64,000 bases of DNA from an uncultured Gammaproteobacteria bacterium. Lineage in GTDB: Bacteria > Patescibacteriota > Patescibacteriia > Magasanikbacterales > UBA922. The notes beneath the pieces are model-generated. The model was not told where the DNA came from. It saw only the letters and a program-made list of their open reading frames with translations, and ran no database searches. The DNA is taken from positions 192,092 to 256,091 of the forward strand of contig CAYMVY010000002.1 in assembly GCA_964394405.1 (NCBI GenBank), in the 5' to 3' direction. A program made the position numbers and the translations under genes. Positions 6,422 through 44,522 of this stretch are shown in pieces. Numbering within the stretch: position 1 is the first letter of the stretch; each line of letters begins with the position of its first letter.

Positions 6422-6635
6422 GCGGGATACGACCCTCCTTCGCCCGGCTAGGCCGGGCTATGGCGGGCAAGGAACCGGTAATCTTGAGCGAGTGAGGGGA
6501 ATCGAACCCCCTTCCCGTGCTTGGGAAGCACGAATAATAACCATTATACGACACTCGCATGATCCCTCCTTATACACACTAATACCATTACCCGTCCGCC
6601 GTAGCCCATAGGGCGAAGGTGGATACTAATCCCGC
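6422..6635 (-). repeat. long-range inverted repeat (about 45 bp per arm) enclosing tRNA-Gly: putative leader/trailer processing stem
   Basis: 6422-6445 gcgggatacgaccctccttcgccc pairs with 6611-6635 gggcgaaggtggatactaatcccgc; 6453-6464 ggctatggcggg pairs with 6596-6607 ccgccgtagccc. Confidence 0.5.
6487..6558 (-). tRNA. tRNA-Gly (anticodon CCC)
   Basis: reverse complement GCGAGTG..CGTGC-TTCCCAA-GCACG-GGAA-GGGGG-TTCGATT-CCCCT-CACTCGC-T; 7-bp acceptor stem, anticodon loop TTCCCAA, 4-nt variable loop; D-stem is weak (3 bp). Confidence 0.65.
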
Positions 6636-12802: not shown

Positions 12803-13528
12803 TTATTCTTGACCACTTGCAGCAGTTTTTGACGCGGTACCAGACGCATCAAGCACAAGACTGTAGTGATCCATAAGAATTTTTGTTGCTCGCTCCACCG
12901 CTTCTCGAGGAGAAATCGTTCCATTCGTTTCAATTCTAATTACAAGTTTTTCGTAATCAGTTACATCTCCTACACGAGTATTCTCAACTGAATATCCCAC
13001 ATCCTTGATTGGTGAGTAAAATGAGTCCATAACAATGGTCCCCAAATCAAGATGCTTGCTTTCTTTTTCTGCAGCAGGAACGTATCCCAAACCTTTTCCA
13101 ATAATCACCTCAAGTGTAAATTCTTTTTTGTCACTCGTAATTGTTGCGATCTTGAGTTCAGGATTAATAATTTCAATATCAGCATTTTTATCAAAATCAC
13201 CTGCAGTCACTTCTCCTTTACCTGTTTTCTTGAGTGTTAATATCACCGGCTCGTCACTGTGAGAAATCACTGCGAGCTGCTTCAGATTGAGTGTAACTTC
13301 AATCACATCTTCGAGTACACCATCAATTGCAGAAAACTCGTGCTGGATTCCATCAATCTTTACTGCCTCGACAGCAGATCCCTCAATTGAAGAGAGAAGT
13401 ACACGTCGGAGTGAATTCCCCAGCGTGGTTCCGTATCCCTGATGACAAGGGGTAACGACCAACTCGCCGATATTTTTGTCACCGGTTTCTCGGAATTCGA
13501 TTGTTGATGGTAGTAAAATATAATCCAT
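12803..13528 (-). CDS. rpoA: DNA-directed RNA polymerase subunit alpha, N-terminal domain only (241 aa, no alpha-CTD)
   Basis: conserved alpha-NTD blocks (GYGTTLGNSLRRVLLSS, VTPCHQG); the ORF ends 24 nt before rplQ, leaving no room for a ~90-aa CTD. Confidence 0.85.
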   Translation of the reverse strand: MDYILLPSTIEFRETGDKNIGELVVTPCHQGYGTTLGNSLRRVLLSSIEGSAVEAVKIDGIQHEFSAIDGVLEDVIEVTLNLKQLAVISHSDEPVILTLKKTGKGEVTAGDFDKNADIEIINPELKIATITSDKKEFTLEVIIGKGLGYVPAAEKESKHLDLGTIVMDSFYSPIKDVGYSVENTRVGDVTDYEKLVIRIETNGTISPREAVERATKILMDHYSLVLDASGTASKTAASGQE

Positions 13529-15322: not shown

Positions 15323-15541
15323 TTAGAACCGATAGGTAATGCGTCCTTTTGACAGGTCATACGGCGTCATTTCGACTTTCACCTCGTCACCGACGTTGAG
15401 TCGAATATTGAACATTCGCATTTTCCCAGACAAATGGGCAATTACTTCGTGTTCGTTTTCAAGTTTCACTCGAAATTTGGCTCCTGGTAACAATTCATCA
15501 ATAGTACCTCGGACTTCCAAAAAATCGTTTTGCTTTCCCAT
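15323..15541 (-). CDS. infA: translation initiation factor IF-1
   Basis: 72-aa S1-like fold; [34 protein letters not shown] matches the IF-1 consensus. Confidence 0.9.
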
Positions 15542-15679
15542 GTAAATATGTTTAACGCTGACATTGTAGCGTATCTGACTAAAGTTGTCAAGAACTTCCA
15601 GATTGTGTCTAAAGACCTATATCTTGGCTTATTTTAGCATAATAATTTATATTTGACAAACTGTGCACAACTTGATAGT

Positions 15680-16046
15680 TTGCACCTGGTGGATGCAGAA
15701 ACAGTGTACTGCAGAAGTTTCCGGGTTCGTTGCTCGGCACTGGTCCTTGAGATAGTTCCTGGTGTGTAGAGCCATAGGCGGGAGACTGAGAGATCGTGTG
15801 CGGTGTCTACATGGAGCATCAAATAAGGAAAGATCCGAATAGTCGAAAGGCATCGGTACGGGCATTGCTCTCGAGCGGGCCTACTTACACGTCTTATCCT
15901 CGATTTGATGCGATGAAGTGGAGACGTCCCGCACGGAGGATCGTCGTTGAAATACCGCCCTCTAGGAGCGAAATACATTCGAAAGGATTCTGCATCCACC
16001 ACCCTACCCCGCCGACACTTGTGTCCGCGGGGTTTATCTTTTTTAT
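15680..16046 (+). ncRNA. candidate GC-rich structured non-coding transcript of about 360 nt, identity unknown
   Basis: consensus-like promoter (TTGACA at 15651) upstream; about 55% GC region with no credible ORF on either strand; ends in a strong intrinsic terminator; no RNase P, tmRNA or SRP motif found by eye. Confidence 0.25.
16007..16046 (+). terminator. intrinsic terminator (copy 1 of a duplicated terminator)
   Basis: CCCCGCCGACAC-tt-GTGTCCGCGGGG followed by TTTATCTTTTTT. Confidence 0.7.
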
Positions 16047-16112
16047 ACAGTTTGACCAAAACACTATTCTATAGTATACACTCCTTATCCCACACATCGG
16101 AGGAAAAGGGAT

Positions 16113-16475
16113 ATGACGATCAATAATCTCATGGGCACTCAGTTCGTTATCGCGTCCTACAAGATCAAGGATGAGCTCTTCATCCACGGAGGTCCGGATG
16201 CAAGAATAGTAGCAAAAGGAATCCTCCGGTACATGGTTCAAAGCACCCTCACAGAAAATCCTCAGGCAGATGTCAGCCGCCTGATGGAAGATGCAGTGGC
16301 GCTCACACCTACCCTCAAGTACCTGAGTGTCGACGAGCTCCACGAGATCACCAGTCGGGCAGCTGACAATGATCTCGATGCAAGAGTCTTCGAATTCATG
16401 CTTGAAGTACTGCGAGGGTCAGTCCCGACCGAAGACTCCTTCCTCGGGAAGGTGAAAGTTCCCACCATACCCTAA
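16113..16475 (+). CDS. hypothetical protein, GC-rich
   Basis: 120 aa; strong SD GGAGGAAAAGGGAT before the ATG; about 55% GC versus an AT-rich backbone. Confidence 0.5.
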   Translation: MTINNLMGTQFVIASYKIKDELFIHGGPDARIVAKGILRYMVQSTLTENPQADVSRLMEDAVALTPTLKYLSVDELHEITSRAADNDLDARVFEFMLEVLRGSVPTEDSFLGKVKVPTIP

Positions 16476-16493
16476 CCCAGCCGGAGAAACACC

Positions 16494-16706
16494 GTGCCTG
16501 ATCGATACTGCACCACTTGCAGAAAACCCATCAGCGATACCTCACGCCCGCATACACGCATGATCGATGCCATGAATGGAGGTGTCGAGATCATAGAGTG
16601 CGTGGGCGGCATACTTGTCGATGCATCTGCGCTTGGACGCAATCCGCGCTGGTCGTACATCGACTACTCGAGCCACGTGACCGGGATTCACCCCAACGAT
16701 GGCTGA
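16494..16706 (+). CDS. hypothetical small protein (GTG start), GC-rich
   Basis: 70 aa; GGAG 7 nt upstream of GTG; 18 nt after the preceding ORF; followed by a terminator. Confidence 0.4.
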   Translation: MPDRYCTTCRKPISDTSRPHTRMIDAMNGGVEIIECVGGILVDASALGRNPRWSYIDYSSHVTGIHPNDG

Positions 16707-16732
16707 GGTTCATTGGACCAGCTATTGCGCGA

Positions 16733-16769
16733 CCCCGCCGACACCATGTCCGCGGGGTTCATCTTTTTT
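16733..16769 (+). terminator. intrinsic terminator (copy 2, near-identical to 16007..16046)
   Basis: CCCCGCCGACACCATGTCCGCGGGG followed by TTCATCTTTTTTAT. Confidence 0.7.
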
Positions 16770-16806
16770 ATATGTACTTTTCTTTTCTCTTTTTTACTTT
16801 TAACCT

Positions 16807-17250
16807 TTAACTTTTTACTTCCTCTCTCTCCCGATACACCCAAAATCGAAATAGTGCAAAATTCCACAGTACCATGCACGCAATTGAAGCTACTCGTACC
16901 AATAGATATGGAAGTCCAAGAATCTCGTTTCCCAAATGCATCGCACCTACTGAGAACGCATAGTTCCATGTTGCGAGTATCAGATATCGTACTAATTCTT
17001 TGTGTGAAGGAGCCTTGCTTCCAAACGACCATTTTTTATTGAGAGTAAAATTAAACCCAAGCACTATTGCCTGATTGATGATAACTGACACGGTCGGATT
17101 CAGCTGGATCCACTCAACAAACACAACAAGCAATGCGAGATCAATCGCAACACTTGAAACTCCGACAATTACATATTTTGCGAATTTTACTCGCTCTGCC
17201 CACGCCATTGCGATAACATGAAGAATTTTTTGTTTCATAGATGTAGGCAA
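16807..17250 (-). CDS. GtrA family polysaccharide-synthesis membrane protein
   Basis: 147 aa, 4 TM helices; YVIVGVSSVAIDLALLVVFVEW...LNKKWSF matches GtrA-like. Confidence 0.65.
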   Translation of the reverse strand: MPTSMKQKILHVIAMAWAERVKFAKYVIVGVSSVAIDLALLVVFVEWIQLNPTVSVIINQAIVLGFNFTLNKKWSFGSKAPSHKELVRYLILATWNYAFSVGAMHLGNEILGLPYLLVRVASIACMVLWNFALFRFWVYREREEVKS

Positions 17251-17359
17251 GTATACGCGATATGTACATTTTATTCAAACAAAATAAGACTACAGTCGAC
17301 AGCCTACTGACTACAGTAAGATTCAAGATCTACTGTCTATAGTCTGTTGTCTATAGTCT

Positions 17360-18211
17360 TTAATTCTGTGCAATACTTGTCTTTCTCAAATACTTCGTCT
17401 TGATAATCGAATACGTGAATACCATCAAAAATACAATCCCCTGGAACAATACAATCGCTCCACCGGTCGACACGTCGAGGTAATAACTCACATATGAACC
17501 TGCAATCGAACTAACCACACTCACCGTTGTCGCAATACCAAGCATTGTGGGGAAACGTTTGGTCAGGACAAACGCAGTTGCTCCTGGGGTAATAAGCATG
17601 GCAATAACGAGAATAATACCAACAGTCTGAAGTGATACGGTAATCGTAATTGCGAGGAGTACTAGTAAGAAGTAGTGAACCACTTTTGCATTGATGCCGA
17701 TTGACTGCATATGCGTAGCGTCAAAGCAGTACAGTAGCAGAGTGCGTCTGAATGCAATGATGATGAGCGCAACCAGCAGTGAAACCCCCATCGTGTACCA
17801 TGCGGCACTATCTGAAATTCCCAGCACGTATCCAAAGAGTACATGCATCAGATCGACTGAGGAGACTGTTCTAGAAATCAATACCAGACCAAGCGCAAAG
17901 AGCATCGTAAATACAATACCCATGACCGCATCCTCTTTGATCTTGGTGTTTGTTTTGATTCCACCAATGAGAAGCACTGCGAGCAAGGCGAATACAAATG
18001 CTCCAATACTAAAGGGAATTCCAATAATGTATGCAAGTACCACACCTGGTAATACTGCATGCGAAATTGCATCGCCCAACAGTGACCACCCTTTCAAAAT
18101 AAGAAAACATGATAATAGCGCGCATACTGCGCCTACAACCGAAGAAACCAAAATGGCTTTTACCATGAAGGGGTATTGGAGTGGGGTTGTAATTATGTCG
18201 AGGATATTCAT
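17360..18211 (-). CDS. metal ABC transporter permease (ABC-3 family, ZnuB/MntB-like)
   Basis: 8-9 TM helices, ABC-3 signature region; start moved to ATG at 18211 (MNILDIITTP) because the ORF-track TTG start lies inside the repeat element. Confidence 0.8.
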   Translation of the reverse strand: MNILDIITTPLQYPFMVKAILVSSVVGAVCALLSCFLILKGWSLLGDAISHAVLPGVVLAYIIGIPFSIGAFVFALLAVLLIGGIKTNTKIKEDAVMGIVFTMLFALGLVLISRTVSSVDLMHVLFGYVLGISDSAAWYTMGVSLLVALIIIAFRRTLLLYCFDATHMQSIGINAKVVHYFLLVLLAITITVSLQTVGIILVIAMLITPGATAFVLTKRFPTMLGIATTVSVVSSIAGSYVSYYLDVSTGGAIVLFQGIVFLMVFTYSIIKTKYLRKTSIAQN

Positions 18212-18335
18212 AGTGTATAAACTCAAAGCTTAAAACTCAAAACGTAAAACTGTAACTCAAATCTAGAAACTAATTCTTCTATTTAGTTTTAAATTTTTAG
18301 TTGTAATTTTAAGTTTTGACATTTGAGTTTTGATT
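18212..18335. repeat. AT-rich imperfect-palindrome intergenic element ('caaaactcaaa' family)
   Basis: taaactcaaagcttaaaactcaaaacgtaaaactgtaactcaaatc ... agttgtaattttaagttttgacatttgagttttga. Confidence 0.7.
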
Positions 18336-18355
18336 TAAAAAATTACAAAGTCAAT

Positions 18356-19105
18356 TTAGTGATTAAATTGAATATGATGCATCGCTCCATCATATGTTTT
18401 TTCTACTAACTCACGCGTAAACACTTCTTTGGTAGGGCCATACGCAATCACCGTTCTTTTTACCAATGCGATATAATCGCAATATTCTGAAAGCGAGGTG
18501 AGTTCATGTGTAGAAAGAATAATTGTTTTTCCTTCGGACTGGAGTGTGAGTAGTAATTGTGTAAGCGATCGTTCACTCTTGGCATCAACTCCGGCAAATG
18601 GCTCATCAAGTAACAGAATCTCGGCACCATGTGCGAGTGCTCGCGCTACGAATACACGTTTTTTTTGTCCGCCAGATAATTCTCCGATTTGTCGATCTTT
18701 GTATTCAGACATTCCGACTTTTTCAAGTGCACCCTCTACCATTTTTTTGTCTTTTTCAGTCGGGGTACGAAATATATTCTGTGATCCATATCTTCCCATC
18801 ATAACCACATCATACACAGACACTGGAAAATCCCAATCGACCAATTCATTTTGCGGTACATAGGCAACGAGCCCAAGCTTCTGTGCAGTTTTGGGATTTT
18901 TTCCACAGACTAACACGCTACCTTGGTCAGGCTTTACTAATCCCATAATCACTTTGAACAGAGTAGACTTCCCTGCCCCATTCATTCCGATAATTCCAGA
19001 AAAACTTTTATACGGAATTGAAATCGATGTATCACGAAGAGCGATATACTCATGATACTTCACTGATACATCTCTTATTTCTATTGCAAATTTATTTTCT
19101 GACAT
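18356..19105 (-). CDS. metal ABC transporter ATP-binding protein (ZnuC/MntA-like)
   Basis: Walker A GMNGAGKSTL, signature LSGGQKKRVFVARAL, Walker B ILLLDEPFAGVD. Confidence 0.85.
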   Translation of the reverse strand: MSENKFAIEIRDVSVKYHEYIALRDTSISIPYKSFSGIIGMNGAGKSTLFKVIMGLVKPDQGSVLVCGKNPKTAQKLGLVAYVPQNELVDWDFPVSVYDVVMMGRYGSQNIFRTPTEKDKKMVEGALEKVGMSEYKDRQIGELSGGQKKRVFVARALAHGAEILLLDEPFAGVDAKSERSLTQLLLTLQSEGKTIILSTHELTSLSEYCDYIALVKRTVIAYGPTKEVFTRELVEKTYDGAMHHIQFNH

Positions 19106-20045: not shown

Positions 20046-20180
20046 CTATTAACTCAAAGCTTAAAACTCAAAACGCAAAACGATAACTTAAGTCTAAAAA
20101 CTAATTATTATATTTAGTTTTTAATTTTTTAGTGTAGTTTTGAGTTTTGAAATTTGAGTTTTGAAATTTGAGTTTTGCGT
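20046..20180. repeat. AT-rich imperfect-palindrome intergenic element ('caaaactcaaa' family); right arm carries an internal tandem duplication
   Basis: aactcaaagcttaaaactcaaaacgcaaaacgataact ... agttttgagttttgaaatttgagttttgaaatttgagttttgcgtt. Confidence 0.7.
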
Positions 20181-20622: not shown

Positions 20623-20806
20623 TCACTATATCACACTTGAACACTCTCGTCAAGGATCGAATTATCCACCAAATAAGCATTGACAAAGTGCTCATTTTGA
20701 GATACCCTTTCTTGAGTTTGACTATGCAGCATTCGCGGCACATCAAACTCTCGAGTCGACCAAAAGGAAGACCGAATTCACAACGACACAAAGGAGTACA
20801 ATCGCC

Positions 20807-21022
20807 ATGCCCAATACCATACAGGACCGGAACTCCAATCGGTACGATCTCCCAGAGTTCCCGAAGCGCGGTTCCCTGCGCCACGACGGCATGACCGCCG
20901 CCTCCACCACCTCCCCGTCCAGCAAACGTGGAGGAGAATACCAGGTCGGCCATGACCCGGAAGAGGAGGTCGAACCCACCCAGATGGTCAACCACTTCTT
21001 CGGCCGGGGACGGAGAGGGTAG
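20807..21022 (+). CDS. hypothetical small protein, GC-rich
   Basis: 71 aa; SD AAGGAG 10 nt upstream; promoter-like TTGACA-17-TACCCT at 20683-20711. Confidence 0.3.
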   Translation: MPNTIQDRNSNRYDLPEFPKRGSLRHDGMTAASTTSPSSKRGGEYQVGHDPEEEVEPTQMVNHFFGRGRRG

Positions 21023-21127
21023 GTCGGTTCGCAAGTTTCGAACGCGTACAACCACATACGGGCCACTCTGGTTCCCGCATGACGGAAGTACGCGTTCGGA
21101 CTCTCTCAAAAACGATATTCATTATTC

Positions 21128-21157
21128 AAACGCCTTATGGGCGATTTTTTGTTTTTT
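21128..21157 (+). terminator. intrinsic terminator (copy 1 of a duplicated terminator)
   Basis: CGCC-ttatg-GGCG followed by ATTTTTTGTTTTTT. Confidence 0.6.
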
Positions 21158-21177
21158 AACCTATCCACCCCCTACTC

Positions 21178-21206
21178 TTGACAGCATATTCACTCTATGC
21201 TAGTAT
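21178..21206 (+). promoter_or_regulatory. sigma70-type promoter TTGACA-17-TAGTAT
   Basis: exact -35 consensus, 17-bp spacer, TAnnnT -10. Confidence 0.55.
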
Positions 21207-21292
21207 CTTTTGAAGTTTGGACTGGCTATGCATTCGCTTGCCATGCGACCAGACTTTTTCTGTGACACCTGCGACGAGACAGGAGAGTCCTC

Positions 21293-21478
21293 ATGAAGGA
21301 TCCCCCGATGACCAGCATCAAGGGAAACAATCCCAACATTCCGGCGATGACGAACGGCAACAACCTCGACCGGCCGATGGACGCCGGCACCAAGAAGAAG
21401 GGCACCGACCGCGACCGCTACGCGCGCGCGAAGAAGATCTCGATGAAGGGGCACGGCGGCTCGAAGCCGGCGGCCTGA
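21293..21478 (+). CDS. hypothetical small basic protein, GC-rich
   Basis: 61 aa; SD GGAGAG 5 nt upstream of the ATG; alternative overlapping 98-aa ORF 21217..21513 is low-complexity. Confidence 0.35.
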   Translation: MKDPPMTSIKGNNPNIPAMTNGNNLDRPMDAGTKKKGTDRDRYARAKKISMKGHGGSKPAA

Positions 21479-21517
21479 TCGAGCGCGGCGAGCGAGCTCC
21501 TACCAACCCCTAGACCA

Positions 21518-21677
21518 AAGGAGGTCCTGGTGCGGAAGTACGCAGTGTTCTAGATGGGCTCACACCGAGCCCTCCTCGGCACCTTCCTAGGGCGACAACG
21601 ACGCCGTCGCCCACAACCTCTCAACGGAGGAAAGATGAGGAAGTACGCAGTGTTCTAGATAGGCTCACACCGAGCCT
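21518..21677 (+). repeat. tandem direct repeat (2 x about 42 bp, period 105 bp), each unit = SD + 7-codon mini-ORF M-R-K-Y-A-V-F + stop + GGCTCACACCGAGCC hairpin
   Basis: AAGGAGGtcctgGTGCGGAAGTACGCAGTGTTCTAGATGGGCTCACACCGAGCC at 21518; GGAGGAAAGATGAGGAAGTACGCAGTGTTCTAGATAGGCTCACACCGAGCC at 21626; both in the same frame. Confidence 0.6.
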
Positions 21678-21817
21678 CCCACGCGCCCGCACGCATCCCC
21701 TACCACGACGCAACCAACGGTACGGGAAATGCTTCGGACGCACCTGGCGCCGCGCCCTCGCATGAACTTCGGTTCAAGCGACGGGTGCGGCGCCAGACAC
21801 TCAATTCAATCATTCTG

Positions 21818-21846
21818 AAAACGCCTTATGGGCGATTTTTTGTTTA
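21818..21846 (+). terminator. intrinsic terminator (copy 2, identical core to 21128..21157)
   Basis: AAACGCCTTATGGGCGATTTTTTGTTT. Confidence 0.6.
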
Positions 21847-21861
21847 TATAAGTGTCTTGCA

Positions 21862-21890
21862 TTGACAGAAAGATATAATTATGCTACACT
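21862..21890 (+). promoter_or_regulatory. sigma70-type promoter TTGACA-17-TACACT upstream of the membrane protein gene
   Basis: exact -35, 17-bp spacer. Confidence 0.45.
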
Positions 21891-22058
21891 CTTCCGTTCG
21901 TCTTTGACGAAAGATCTTTACATGAATTTAGCCATTTCCATGCATTTGGTCAGTATTGTGATATTTCAATTTTTGAATTATTGCACAACTGACTAAAAAG
22001 CTGAGTGGTGAAGTTCACTATTTGGTTCATAAGTCAAAATGTCAGCCAGGAGGCAGAC

Positions 22059-23030
22059 ATGTTCGGTAAGCTCTTCGAGGTGTTCAACATCGAGAAGTGG
22101 TCGGGCCTCGGCCTGACGCTTCTCACCTGTGTTCTTCTCATGACGACTGCTCGTGCGCTTCTTGCGCCGGGTGTCGTCGAGTTCCCTTCCGAGCTCGCCT
22201 CGGATGGTGACTACTGGAGTATGATTGCGATGAGCGCACTGCTCATCGCGGTCGATGCCATGCTGATCGTGCTCGTGTCCTGGTCCTCACTCAACACGCC
22301 GAAAGACGTGATGGGTGTCGCCCTCATGGTCGGGTTGACGCATGTCGTCTTCCCGCTCGTGACCTTCGGCCTCACCGCCGGCGCGACCTTCCTCAGCCAG
22401 CACACGGGCCTCCCGATGTGGTTGGGGCAGGGCATCCTCACGGGCATCTACCTCCTCGCGTTCTACTTCGTTGTGTTCCACCTCCGTGAGGTGCATCGCG
22501 GTATCCGCGAGGGCGAGTCGGACAAGCTCAGCTCGGACCAACCCGCGTTCACGCGAGCGTGGCTGCGGGTGATCTGGCCCATCGTGTTTGCGGTCTCGGT
22601 CGACGCCCTTCTGGTGGGACCGGCTAAGATCGCCTTCATGGCCCGCTACACCGAGACGCAGTTCATGATGAGCTTCGTCTTGATCGGCGGGAGCGTGTTT
22701 GTGCTCGTGATGAGCGCTGGCCTCTTGGTCCTCGCCCTCAAGAAGTGGATCGACAACCACGCGCGGATCTCGAGGAAGGTCCACCAGTTCGACTGGCTTG
22801 GGTCACTCCTCCTCGTCCTCGTCTTCATCCACTTCTCGGTCTTCGCCTTGGTGTACGTGCTCTACACGTTCATCCCGAAGGCATGGATCCTCGAACCCCA
22901 GACCATCTGGAGCGCTACCGGCGCCATCTTCCTCCTCTACCTCATCTTCGGACGAGTGGGGGAGATCAAGAAGGCGAGCCTCGAACGGGCTGGACTGGGT
23001 CCGGCCGAAGTCGAGAATGAAGCAGCCTGA
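22059..23030 (+). CDS. hypothetical polytopic membrane protein, GC-rich (about 58% GC)
   Basis: about 10 TM helices; start set at ATG 22059 preceded by AGGAGG-cagac; the ORF-track start at 22005 lacks an SD. Confidence 0.6.
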   Translation: MFGKLFEVFNIEKWSGLGLTLLTCVLLMTTARALLAPGVVEFPSELASDGDYWSMIAMSALLIAVDAMLIVLVSWSSLNTPKDVMGVALMVGLTHVVFPLVTFGLTAGATFLSQHTGLPMWLGQGILTGIYLLAFYFVVFHLREVHRGIREGESDKLSSDQPAFTRAWLRVIWPIVFAVSVDALLVGPAKIAFMARYTETQFMMSFVLIGGSVFVLVMSAGLLVLALKKWIDNHARISRKVHQFDWLGSLLLVLVFIHFSVFALVYVLYTFIPKAWILEPQTIWSATGAIFLLYLIFGRVGEIKKASLERAGLGPAEVENEAA

Positions 23031-23113
23031 TAGCTGAACCGAACAACAGGTTGGGGACGACATCATCATCACATGCGTGATCGGTGATGCCTGTCCCCTG
23101 CCTTAGTCTACAT

Positions 23114-23170
23114 AAAAAGCAGATAGCTAGTAGCAAAATCTTTGATACTGTACTATCTGCTTTTTTATTT
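23114..23170. terminator. bidirectional intrinsic terminator between convergent genes
   Basis: AAAAAGCAGATAG...28-nt loop...CTATCTGCTTTTTTATTTT. Confidence 0.6.
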
Positions 23171-33097: not shown

Positions 33098-33228
33098 GTA
33101 ATAACTCAAAACGTAAAATTCAAAGCTCAAAACTGAAACTAAAAACTAAAATCTTTCAGCAAAAAGAAAGTAGGATTTTAAAATTTGAATTGTAGTTTTT
33201 AGTTTTGACATTTGAGTTTTGAGTTATT
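33098..33228. repeat. AT-rich imperfect-palindrome intergenic element ('caaaactcaaa' family); right arm overlaps the ftsW stop codon
   Basis: aactcaaaacgtaaaattcaaagctcaaaactgaaactaaaaact ... agtttttagttttgacatttgagttttgagtt. Confidence 0.7.
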
Positions 33229-44395: not shown

Positions 44396-44522
44396 TAAAA
44401 TTCAAAACTTAAAATTCAAAGCTCAAAACTGAAACTAAAAACTTAAAACTTTTTATTCTCATATTAATTAATTTTTAGATTTGAGTTATAGTTTTACGTT
44501 TTGAGATTTAAGTTTTGAGTTT
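44396..44522. repeat. AT-rich imperfect-palindrome intergenic element ('caaaactcaaa' family)
   Basis: aaattcaaaacttaaaattcaaagctcaaaactgaaactaaaaact ... agttatagttttacgttttgagatttaagttttgagtt. Confidence 0.7.

Follow-up and report, generated by a model that had tools for sequence, protein, structure and literature searches.

What is specified by a bacterial DNA segment that has a promoter at one end, a terminator at the other and no credible open reading frame (ORF) in between? The question is raised by a 64-kb stretch of contig CAYMVY010000002.1 (assembly GCA_964394405.1), hereafter the window, in which an earlier note had picked out positions 15680–16046 as a candidate structured non-coding RNA (ncRNA). 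The interval belongs to a promoter-to-terminator unit on the + strand (15653–16046), here termed cassette A, which lies upstream of infA (15323–15541, − strand), the first gene of the infA-rpmJ-rpsM-rpsK-rpsD-rpoA cluster. The reading that we favor, to which we give a probability of roughly 45%, is that cassette A specifies an independently transcribed, end-protected accessory structured ncRNA, which would be a stable scaffold or decoy that works in trans and would be carried on a cassette of the kind known from phages as morons. A structured ncRNA is still the best reading of the interval because it forms a unit, holds no credible ORF and has a predicted fold that favors the + strand, whereas the argument from GC content and folding is confounded, as set out below.

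As read from its sequence, cassette A has a promoter and a factor-independent terminator of its own (Table 1). The TTGACA box that had been placed at 15651 is present, at 15653, with a 17-bp spacer and an extended −10 element behind it, and transcription is predicted to start near G15688. The promoter is missing from a generic promoter scan because its −10 hexamer, TAGTTT, matches just three of the six consensus positions. A regular-expression survey found TTGACN-17/18-TAnnnT to be common to eight further cassette promoters, located in the window and in the loci L082, L084, L087, L096 and L099 of sister genomes. The strong terminator expected at the end of the interval, T1, was confirmed as a G+C-rich hairpin with a T-run on the + strand only; it begins five bases 3' of the helix that closes the predicted RNA fold (P1), and was overlooked by a terminator scan because its stem has one C–C mismatch. 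A repeat search of the window found a near-identical copy of T1 at the end of the neighboring cassette B (T2), and the cassettes of L084/L085 and L082 also end in terminators related to it. The next gene, ORF120, begins with a GGAGG ribosome-binding site and an ATG at 16113, 66 nt past T1, which agrees with the distance of about 70 nt given before; the earlier coordinates as a whole are accurate to two or three bases. Its promoter is homologous to the one preceding the ORF113 gene of L082, and it is there that the nhmmer alignment of the two loci begins (E = 7e-30). The GC content of 15680–16046 is 52.0%, somewhat below the 55% estimated earlier, versus 41.1% for the whole window. As a separate observation, a TTTGAC direct repeat (15652–15657 and 16051–16056) brackets the RNA-plus-terminator module, and in L082, from which the module is absent, two TTGAC boxes lie 9 nt apart at the matching place (about 6425–6440); judging from these sequences, the repeat may have been left behind when a cassette was gained or lost at the −35 box.

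Secondary-structure prediction, which had been suggested as a check, gave a minimum free energy (MFE) of −117.7 kcal/mol for the 315-nt core of the + strand, versus −99.5 ± 5.5 kcal/mol in shuffled sequences (z = −3.3), and none of 150 dinucleotide shuffles folded as well. The complementary strand reaches −94.6 kcal/mol (z = −2.3), so that the + strand is better by 23 kcal/mol; for a 376-nt stretch that includes the terminator, the values are −137 kcal/mol (z = −3.0) on the + strand and −117.9 kcal/mol (z = −2.5) on the − strand. The + strand fold, which contains 56 G–C, 39 A–U and 15 G–U pairs, is overall a long irregular rod closed by the 14-bp helix P1, the 5' strand of which coincides with the predicted transcription start. 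P1 is the sole perfect inverted repeat of at least 14 bp with arms more than 100 nt apart in the window, and end-to-end closure by a perfect helix was seen in cassette A only among the cassettes examined.

Table 1. Features of cassette A, of the neighboring and second-island cassettes, and of the cassettes that occupy the same slot in sister genomes (positions in the window unless a sister locus is named; aa, amino acids)
Feature	Position	Strand	Description
Cassette A promoter	15653–15681	+	−35 TTGACA 15653–15658, 17-bp spacer, extended −10 TGaTAGTTT 15673–15681
P1 closing helix, 5' strand	15687–15700	+	UGGUGGAUGCAGAA; perfect 14-nt inverted repeat; predicted pair probability 0.96
P1 closing helix, 3' strand	15988–16001	+	UUCUGCAUCCACCA; perfect partner of 15687–15700
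5' side domain	15702–15742	+	41 nt; predicted CAGUG/CACUG stem (0.97) and hairpin CCGGGU-UCGUU-GCUCGG (0.47); from MFE and pair probabilities
Rod, 5' arm	15743–15834	+	predicted to pair with 15891–15988; most helices 0.8–0.99, a few short ones 0.3–0.56
Forked tip	15835–15882	+	predicted GAAA-tetraloop hairpin 15835–15856 and hairpin 15860–15882; MFE and centroid structures agree, probabilities 0.85–0.92
Rod, 3' arm	15891–15987	+	purine-rich unpaired segments; GAAAUAC twice (15949–15955, 15970–15976)
Intrinsic terminator T1	16006–16046	+	hairpin ACCCCGCCGACAC-UUGU-GUGUCCGCGGGGU, then U-tract UUUAUCUUUUUU; −18.2 kcal/mol
Promoter of cassette B	16052–16080	+	TTGACC-17-TATACA; outside the RNA, marks the cassette boundary
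Cassette B	16113–16772	+	ORF120 16113–16475, possible ORF70 16494–16706, T2 16732–16772
Second-island cassettes	promoters 20680, 21178, 21862	+	TTGACA-17-TAnnnT; ORFs of 71, 61 and 341 aa
L082 slot			two cassettes: 113-aa protein (ORF120 homologue) and 98-aa protein
L084/L085 slot			101-aa protein
L099 slot			94-aa protein
L087 and L096 slot	L087 5513–5725; L096 4050–4257	− (of the loci)	70-aa CPHC (zinc-ribbon-like) ORF
L088/L089 slot		other strand	175-aa protein

Taken together, these features suggest how such an RNA might be made and kept. The sigma-70-type promoter (TTGACA-17-TGaTAGTTT) would start a + strand RNA of about 320–360 nt that would stop at T1, and the 13–14 bases at the 5' end of this transcript would form a perfect duplex with the bases just ahead of the terminator. 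A helix, with the T1 hairpin behind it, would then hold both RNA ends, and protection from 5'-end-dependent RNases and from 3' exonucleases would therefore be expected, giving a long-lived RNA. The side hairpin, the forked tip with its GAAA tetraloop and the purine-rich internal loops would suit protein binding or tertiary contacts, as a scaffold or a decoy acting in trans would need. A search for antisense targets of cassette A within the window returned chance matches of 10–13 nt only, and a sponge of the CsrA type was set aside, the trinucleotide GGA occurring 9 times with 6.9 expected and thus showing no enrichment. Because cassette A, whose slot between a GtrA-family gene and infA is hypervariable, is found in this genome only, any function would be accessory and strain-specific.

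Could the unit encode a protein instead? The candidates are a 92-aa ORF on the + strand (15796–16074), a 141-aa ORF on the − strand (15634–16059) and a short leaderless peptide from ATG 15693. The earlier judgment that only implausible ORFs occur on both strands was borne out, and the search for a conserved coding frame found neither codon periodicity nor real homologues. In fact, the GC content of the three codon positions is flat in both long frames (0.49/0.51/0.53 in the 92-aa ORF and 0.49/0.50/0.48 in the 141-aa ORF), whereas the real genes of the window give 0.59/0.36/0.60 (ORF120), 0.53/0.29/0.44 (infA), 0.51/0.34/0.36 (GtrA) and 0.58/0.39/0.83 (a 341-aa gene in a second GC-rich island). 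Both frames run through the terminator hairpin, and the 141-aa ORF, which crosses the promoter too, lacks a ribosome-binding site and is rich in Arg, Ser and Cys. The homologue search with the 92-aa frame returned no relative, and an exhaustive HMMER search with the 141-aa frame against 1.84 billion representatives returned a single match (E = 5.6e-4), which was summed over a 1901-aa repeat protein and judged spurious. When cassette A was compared by blastx with all ORFs of the sister hotspots, matches derived from the terminator alone were obtained, while the ORF120 homologue, used as a positive control, was recovered. Every other cassette has a Shine–Dalgarno sequence and an ATG 50–85 nt after the −10 element, and cassette A has none at that distance; a gene caller also found no gene at cassette A on the corresponding contig of an independent Logan assembly. 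Recoding is no explanation, as the interruptions are not attributable to one stop-codon type. There are, however, observations that speak for a protein. GGGAG and GAGAG occur upstream of GTG 15796, and gene callers do miss small genes in this hotspot: the 70-aa CPHC ORF is conserved between L087 and L096, with mostly synonymous differences, and yet is uncalled in both, from which it follows that small real genes are missed in these islands. In addition, a stop-free antisense frame of 144 codons (15634–16068, − strand) covers both promoter and terminator and is of a length reached in just 0.27% of dinucleotide shuffles. The proportion rises to 3.5% in shuffles that preserve base pairing as well as the native flanks, so this frame is just mildly unusual, and on balance a coding function seems improbable.

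The genomic setting of cassette A points to an accessory element. Its neighbors are infA and the ribosomal-protein genes, two small orphan ORFs, the GtrA-family gene (16807–17250, − strand) that forms the other border of the slot, and an ABC transporter, and the unit is part of a GC-rich island of 1.1 kb between infA and GtrA (about 15700–16800, 49–56% GC). The best matches of infA itself are 76–81%, to Parcubacteria/Paceibacteria-like metagenome-assembled genomes, and the window comes from a genome of that kind. Sister genomes were collected through the GtrA protein and exact infA matches, and 13 of them were compared at the slot, which is empty in 8 and holds other cassettes in 5. The GtrA–infA spacer measures 92–150 bp in L083/L100, L086, L091, L093, L097, L101, L105 and L106, as opposed to 1265 bp here. 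Each cassette found in the slot of a sister genome carries a small orphan ORF together with a promoter and a terminator that has a G+C-rich hairpin, and among the genomes compared this one alone has a cassette without an ORF. The 101-aa protein of L084/L085, the 94-aa protein of L099 and the 98-aa protein of L082 make up one family. ORF120 is 45% identical to the 113-aa protein of L082, the aligned DNA showing changes at third positions, and is otherwise an orphan, a search of 5.8 billion proteins having returned only itself; its predicted structure (pLDDT, the confidence score of the model, 58) is too poor for a fold search. None of the cassette proteins matched Pfam, PADLOC or PHROGs.

The order of a structured RNA, an intrinsic terminator and a same-strand gene 66 nt farther on would also suit a cis-acting leader or attenuator of ORF120, riboswitch-like or protein-binding, that controls T1. 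ORF120, however, is preceded by a promoter of its own, which lies between T1 and its start and is conserved in L082, where the homologue stands directly behind the promoter and has no RNA upstream; the gene thus does not require the RNA as a partner, nor does the RNA serve as its leader. Moreover, the perfect 14-bp P1 is too stable for switching, no convincing anti-terminator pairing was found, and Rfam has no riboswitch, T-box or leader family that matches. Control of ORF120 in cis is, accordingly, quite improbable, and the ncRNA acting in trans is preferred.

If cassette A gives rise to an RNA, it may be asked whether that RNA belongs to a known family. With Rfam 15 at gathering thresholds, the whole window yielded three tRNAs and nothing else, so the check that had been proposed found no family to which the element could be assigned. 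Among the families left unmatched are RNase P RNA, transfer-messenger RNA (tmRNA), signal recognition particle (SRP) RNA, 6S RNA, riboswitches, T-box, ribozymes, HEARO, GOLLD, ROOL, OLE and raiA. At E ≤ 10 with lax filters, the region 15500–16200 gave a best value of about 1, which is sub-threshold and falls on the terminator, and ARAGORN found neither tRNA nor tmRNA at 15680–16046. The RNase P RNA, tmRNA, SRP RNA and long riboswitch or leader that had been named as candidates thus found no Rfam match at E ≤ 10, and ARAGORN was negative.

A very divergent housekeeping RNA (RNase P RNA, tmRNA, SRP RNA or 6S RNA) might have been missed by covariance models. The size is fitting, RNAs of this kind typically have their 5' and 3' ends paired, the P1 3' strand ends in ...CCACCA, and AAGGAAAGAUCC is faintly like the CR-I motif of RNase P RNA. 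Bacterial RNase P RNA has a P4 pseudoknot formed by the conserved regions CR-I and CR-V near its 5' and 3' ends. Inspection of cassette A by eye showed only a partial GGAAAG motif, which lies 140 nt from the 5' end and has no CR-V partner, and RNase P RNA was rejected. There is no P4-type partner in place, nor a tag ORF, a 3' T-arm, an SRP domain-IV motif or the large central bubble of 6S RNA. Furthermore, the same locus lacks the element in all sister genomes, their slot being empty or otherwise filled in all 13 compared, and nhmmer run with --max finds the terminator only. The element, which sits in an accessory GC-rich island, cannot count as a housekeeping RNA of this lineage, since none of the sister genomes examined carries it, and a divergent member of one of the classical families is extremely improbable. 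Two further candidates were rejected on other grounds, namely a type III antitoxin RNA, because Tandem Repeats Finder (minimum score 30) detected no tandem repeats, and a retron msr-msd or the ncRNA of a DRT/UG-type reverse transcriptase, because the neighbors show no reverse-transcriptase gene.

The search for relatives outside the known families was equally negative. Neither the RNA nor the island has anything related among phages and plasmids (blastn) or in 80 infA loci of GTDB genomes (nhmmer), although infA is too conserved to serve as an anchor and most of the loci returned were from Alphaproteobacteria. In about 25 sister loci, nhmmer found no relative of the RNA beyond the terminator. 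Exact and degenerate DNA patterns recovered no relative from viral contigs, where two chance matches of 17 nt showed no extended similarity, and the terminator pattern recovered no related sequence from JGI metagenome contigs. The ORF120 family was found in no viral or metagenome contig, and the cassette family A2 in no viral contig. The identical locus is present in the independent Logan assembly of SRR12404947, and an assembly error is therefore unlikely.

The perfect repeat that forms P1 could have a role in DNA rather than in RNA, for example, as the ends of a miniature inverted-repeat transposon or of an invertible segment. Its arms pair by Watson–Crick rules throughout, with no G–U, and enclose 287 bp; the location is a recombination-prone hotspot, and the TTTGAC direct repeat described above stands on both sides of the cassette. 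Nevertheless, neither the window nor any fetched locus contains another copy, and there is no target-site duplication beside the repeats and no recombinase gene nearby. The segment has no promoter inside, and T1 would block any inverted one. The 15 internal G–U pairs and the much weaker folding of the other strand also speak against a DNA element, which we regard as decidedly improbable by comparison with a transcribed RNA.

Folding as such is a less telling trait than it appears. The window contains a second GC-rich island of 2.4 kb (20680–23130, 53–60% GC), which lies between DtxR/MntR-like repressor and IMPDH-like genes in a slot that is likewise variable among sister genomes and carries a duplicated terminator, AAACGCCTTATGGGCGATTTTTTGTTT. 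Its 341-aa product is a membrane protein with a third-position GC (GC3) of 0.83 and no Pfam match. When the cassettes were folded (16107–16631 and 20700–21810 of the window, 5466–5862 of L084 and 5511–5790 of L087), z was −3.0 for the ORF120 coding sequence, −4.5 for the L084 cassette, −2.9 for the L087 cassette, and −3.7 and −4.9 for cassettes of the second island; for host genes, z was −0.3 to −1.6. Coding cassettes, therefore, are also GC-rich and well folded, and neither trait is RNA-specific evidence. The premise of the earlier note that a GC-rich interval in an AT-rich genome marks a structural RNA is thus confounded, given that the 1.1-kb island of 49–56% GC includes a conserved protein gene and that the second island is GC-rich as well. 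What is specific to cassette A is the lack of an ORF, the perfect helix that joins its two ends at the predicted start, and the strand-asymmetric energy.

Several observations weigh against the interpretation of cassette A as an ncRNA gene. The protein-coding cassettes share both high GC and strongly negative z values, and both traits may characterize DNA of this class rather than an RNA gene. The −10 hexamer is weak, and TTTGACAAA is close to palindromic and also scores in the promoter scan as the −35 element of a minus-strand promoter. The antisense frame of 144 codons, which spans both promoter and terminator, adds to this. Finally, no homologue was found in any collection searched, and hence there is no covariation and no sign of selection. 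These points lend weight to the alternative that cassette A has lost its function or never had one, being the shell of a small-protein cassette or captured foreign GC-rich DNA that is still transcribed, with a fold that is simply an island-wide property. Folding is just as good in the coding cassettes, GC is high throughout the island, the element occurs in one genome and in none of the 13 sister genomes, and a + strand frame in phase with the 92-aa ORF is open for about 95 codons, so that the stops upstream of it could be disabling mutations. On the other hand, no cassette ORF family is similar to cassette A at the protein level, and no leftover codon periodicity is seen; the open frame also crosses the terminator, unlike the ORFs of all real cassettes. 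A perfect 14-bp Watson–Crick closure of the ends at the predicted start, in cassette A only, likewise speaks against decay. Decay, in our view, is possible but doubtful, and a structured ncRNA is retained as the preferred explanation.

Some further features of the window deserve mention in their own right. A motif of about 45 nt, GGAAGTACGCAGTGTTCTAGAT(G/A)GGCTCACACCGAGCC, occurs twice (21536–21580 and 21640–21685) in the long non-coding tail of a second-island cassette, and its first ten bases recur at about 21085 in the 3' region of the neighboring cassette; the motif is followed by a near-perfect 18-bp GC hairpin and has no Rfam match. AT-rich intergenic palindromic repeats, with units such as AACTCAAAGCTTAAAACTCAAAAC and arms of 24–58 nt that are 75–88% complementary, are found at 20051–20160, 33100–33228 and 44398–44522. 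In addition, the gene order around infA is unusual. The genes commonly found upstream of infA are secY, adk and map. Here (15323–19105), they are replaced by GtrA, an Mn/Zn-type ABC transporter (ABC-3, ATPase and ZnuA) and a DtxR-like repressor; in some sister genomes, an Nramp transporter stands in place of the ABC transporter, and across the whole lineage the ribosomal-protein cluster is split at infA. RpoA (12803–13528, − strand) has only 241 aa (238–254 aa in the sister genomes), and Pfam finds in it the dimerization and insert domains and no alpha C-terminal domain.

Among systems already described, the closest in organization are the morons of phages, which are independent promoter–gene–terminator units of deviant base composition that lie between conserved genes and are horizontally spread (PMC3594210). 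Cassette A resembles them in its predicted sigma-70-type promoter and factor-independent terminator, in a GC content about 11 points above that of the surrounding genome, and in its position between genes that are adjacent in relatives, with a presence that varies even among close ones. In contrast to morons, it resides in a chromosomal ribosomal-protein neighborhood without a recognizable prophage, the cassettes have no match in phages, viral contigs or PHROGs, and the payload is apparently an RNA. With GOLLD, ROOL, HEARO/omega-RNA, OLE and raiA, large accessory ncRNAs that travel on mobile DNA, it shares a length of more than 300 nt, a high degree of structure, and a patchy occurrence in horizontally acquired DNA, but it matches none of their models and is smaller than GOLLD, ROOL and OLE. 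It adjoins no IscB or TnpB gene and is so far a single sequence that belongs to no family. The protein-binding 6S RNA and actinobacterial Ms1 are also independent transcripts in the form of an extended rod, with a long closing stem that joins the 5' end to the 3' end. Such a shape and an independent transcript are predicted here too; however, cassette A lacks the large central bubble, carries a forked tip and additional side hairpins, finds no 6S match in Rfam and lacks conservation among the sister genomes. Type III toxin–antitoxin systems (ToxIN-like) have the same order of promoter, ncRNA, intrinsic terminator and small protein gene, whereas here tandem repeats are absent, ORF120 is served by a promoter of its own and its L082 homologue lacks an accompanying RNA, and PADLOC and Pfam give no toxin match.

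For now, therefore, cassette A is best filed, as a single and unproven sequence, with the stand-alone structured ncRNAs of bacteria that are carried on accessory cassettes, and the hotspots that exchange such cassettes are arguably as interesting as the RNA itself. It is tempting to extend the argument and to propose that the lineage keeps at least two chromosomal hotspots (GtrA/infA and IMPDH-like/MntR-like) of exchangeable GC-rich mini-cassettes, each of which would yield an unusually structured transcript from a consensus promoter and end in a terminator of a shared type. Cassette A would then be the first with a large end-locked rod-like RNA, which would represent a new ncRNA class within an undescribed chromosomal 'moron' system of ultra-small symbiotic bacteria; this wider proposal is speculative, and we consider it unlikely. 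Should even the narrower interpretation prove wrong, the case would serve as a warning that high GC, good folding and the lack of an ORF are insufficient to call an RNA gene in genomes with foreign GC-rich islands. To our knowledge, almost nothing is known about the ncRNAs or the accessory gene flow of candidate-phyla-radiation bacteria. If the interpretation is correct, a large structured RNA without relatives would be carried as a swappable cassette in one of their reduced genomes. That close relatives differ at the slot only by GC-rich cassettes of promoter, payload and terminator, with orphan products, suggests an unrecognized route by which these bacteria gain genes and RNAs.

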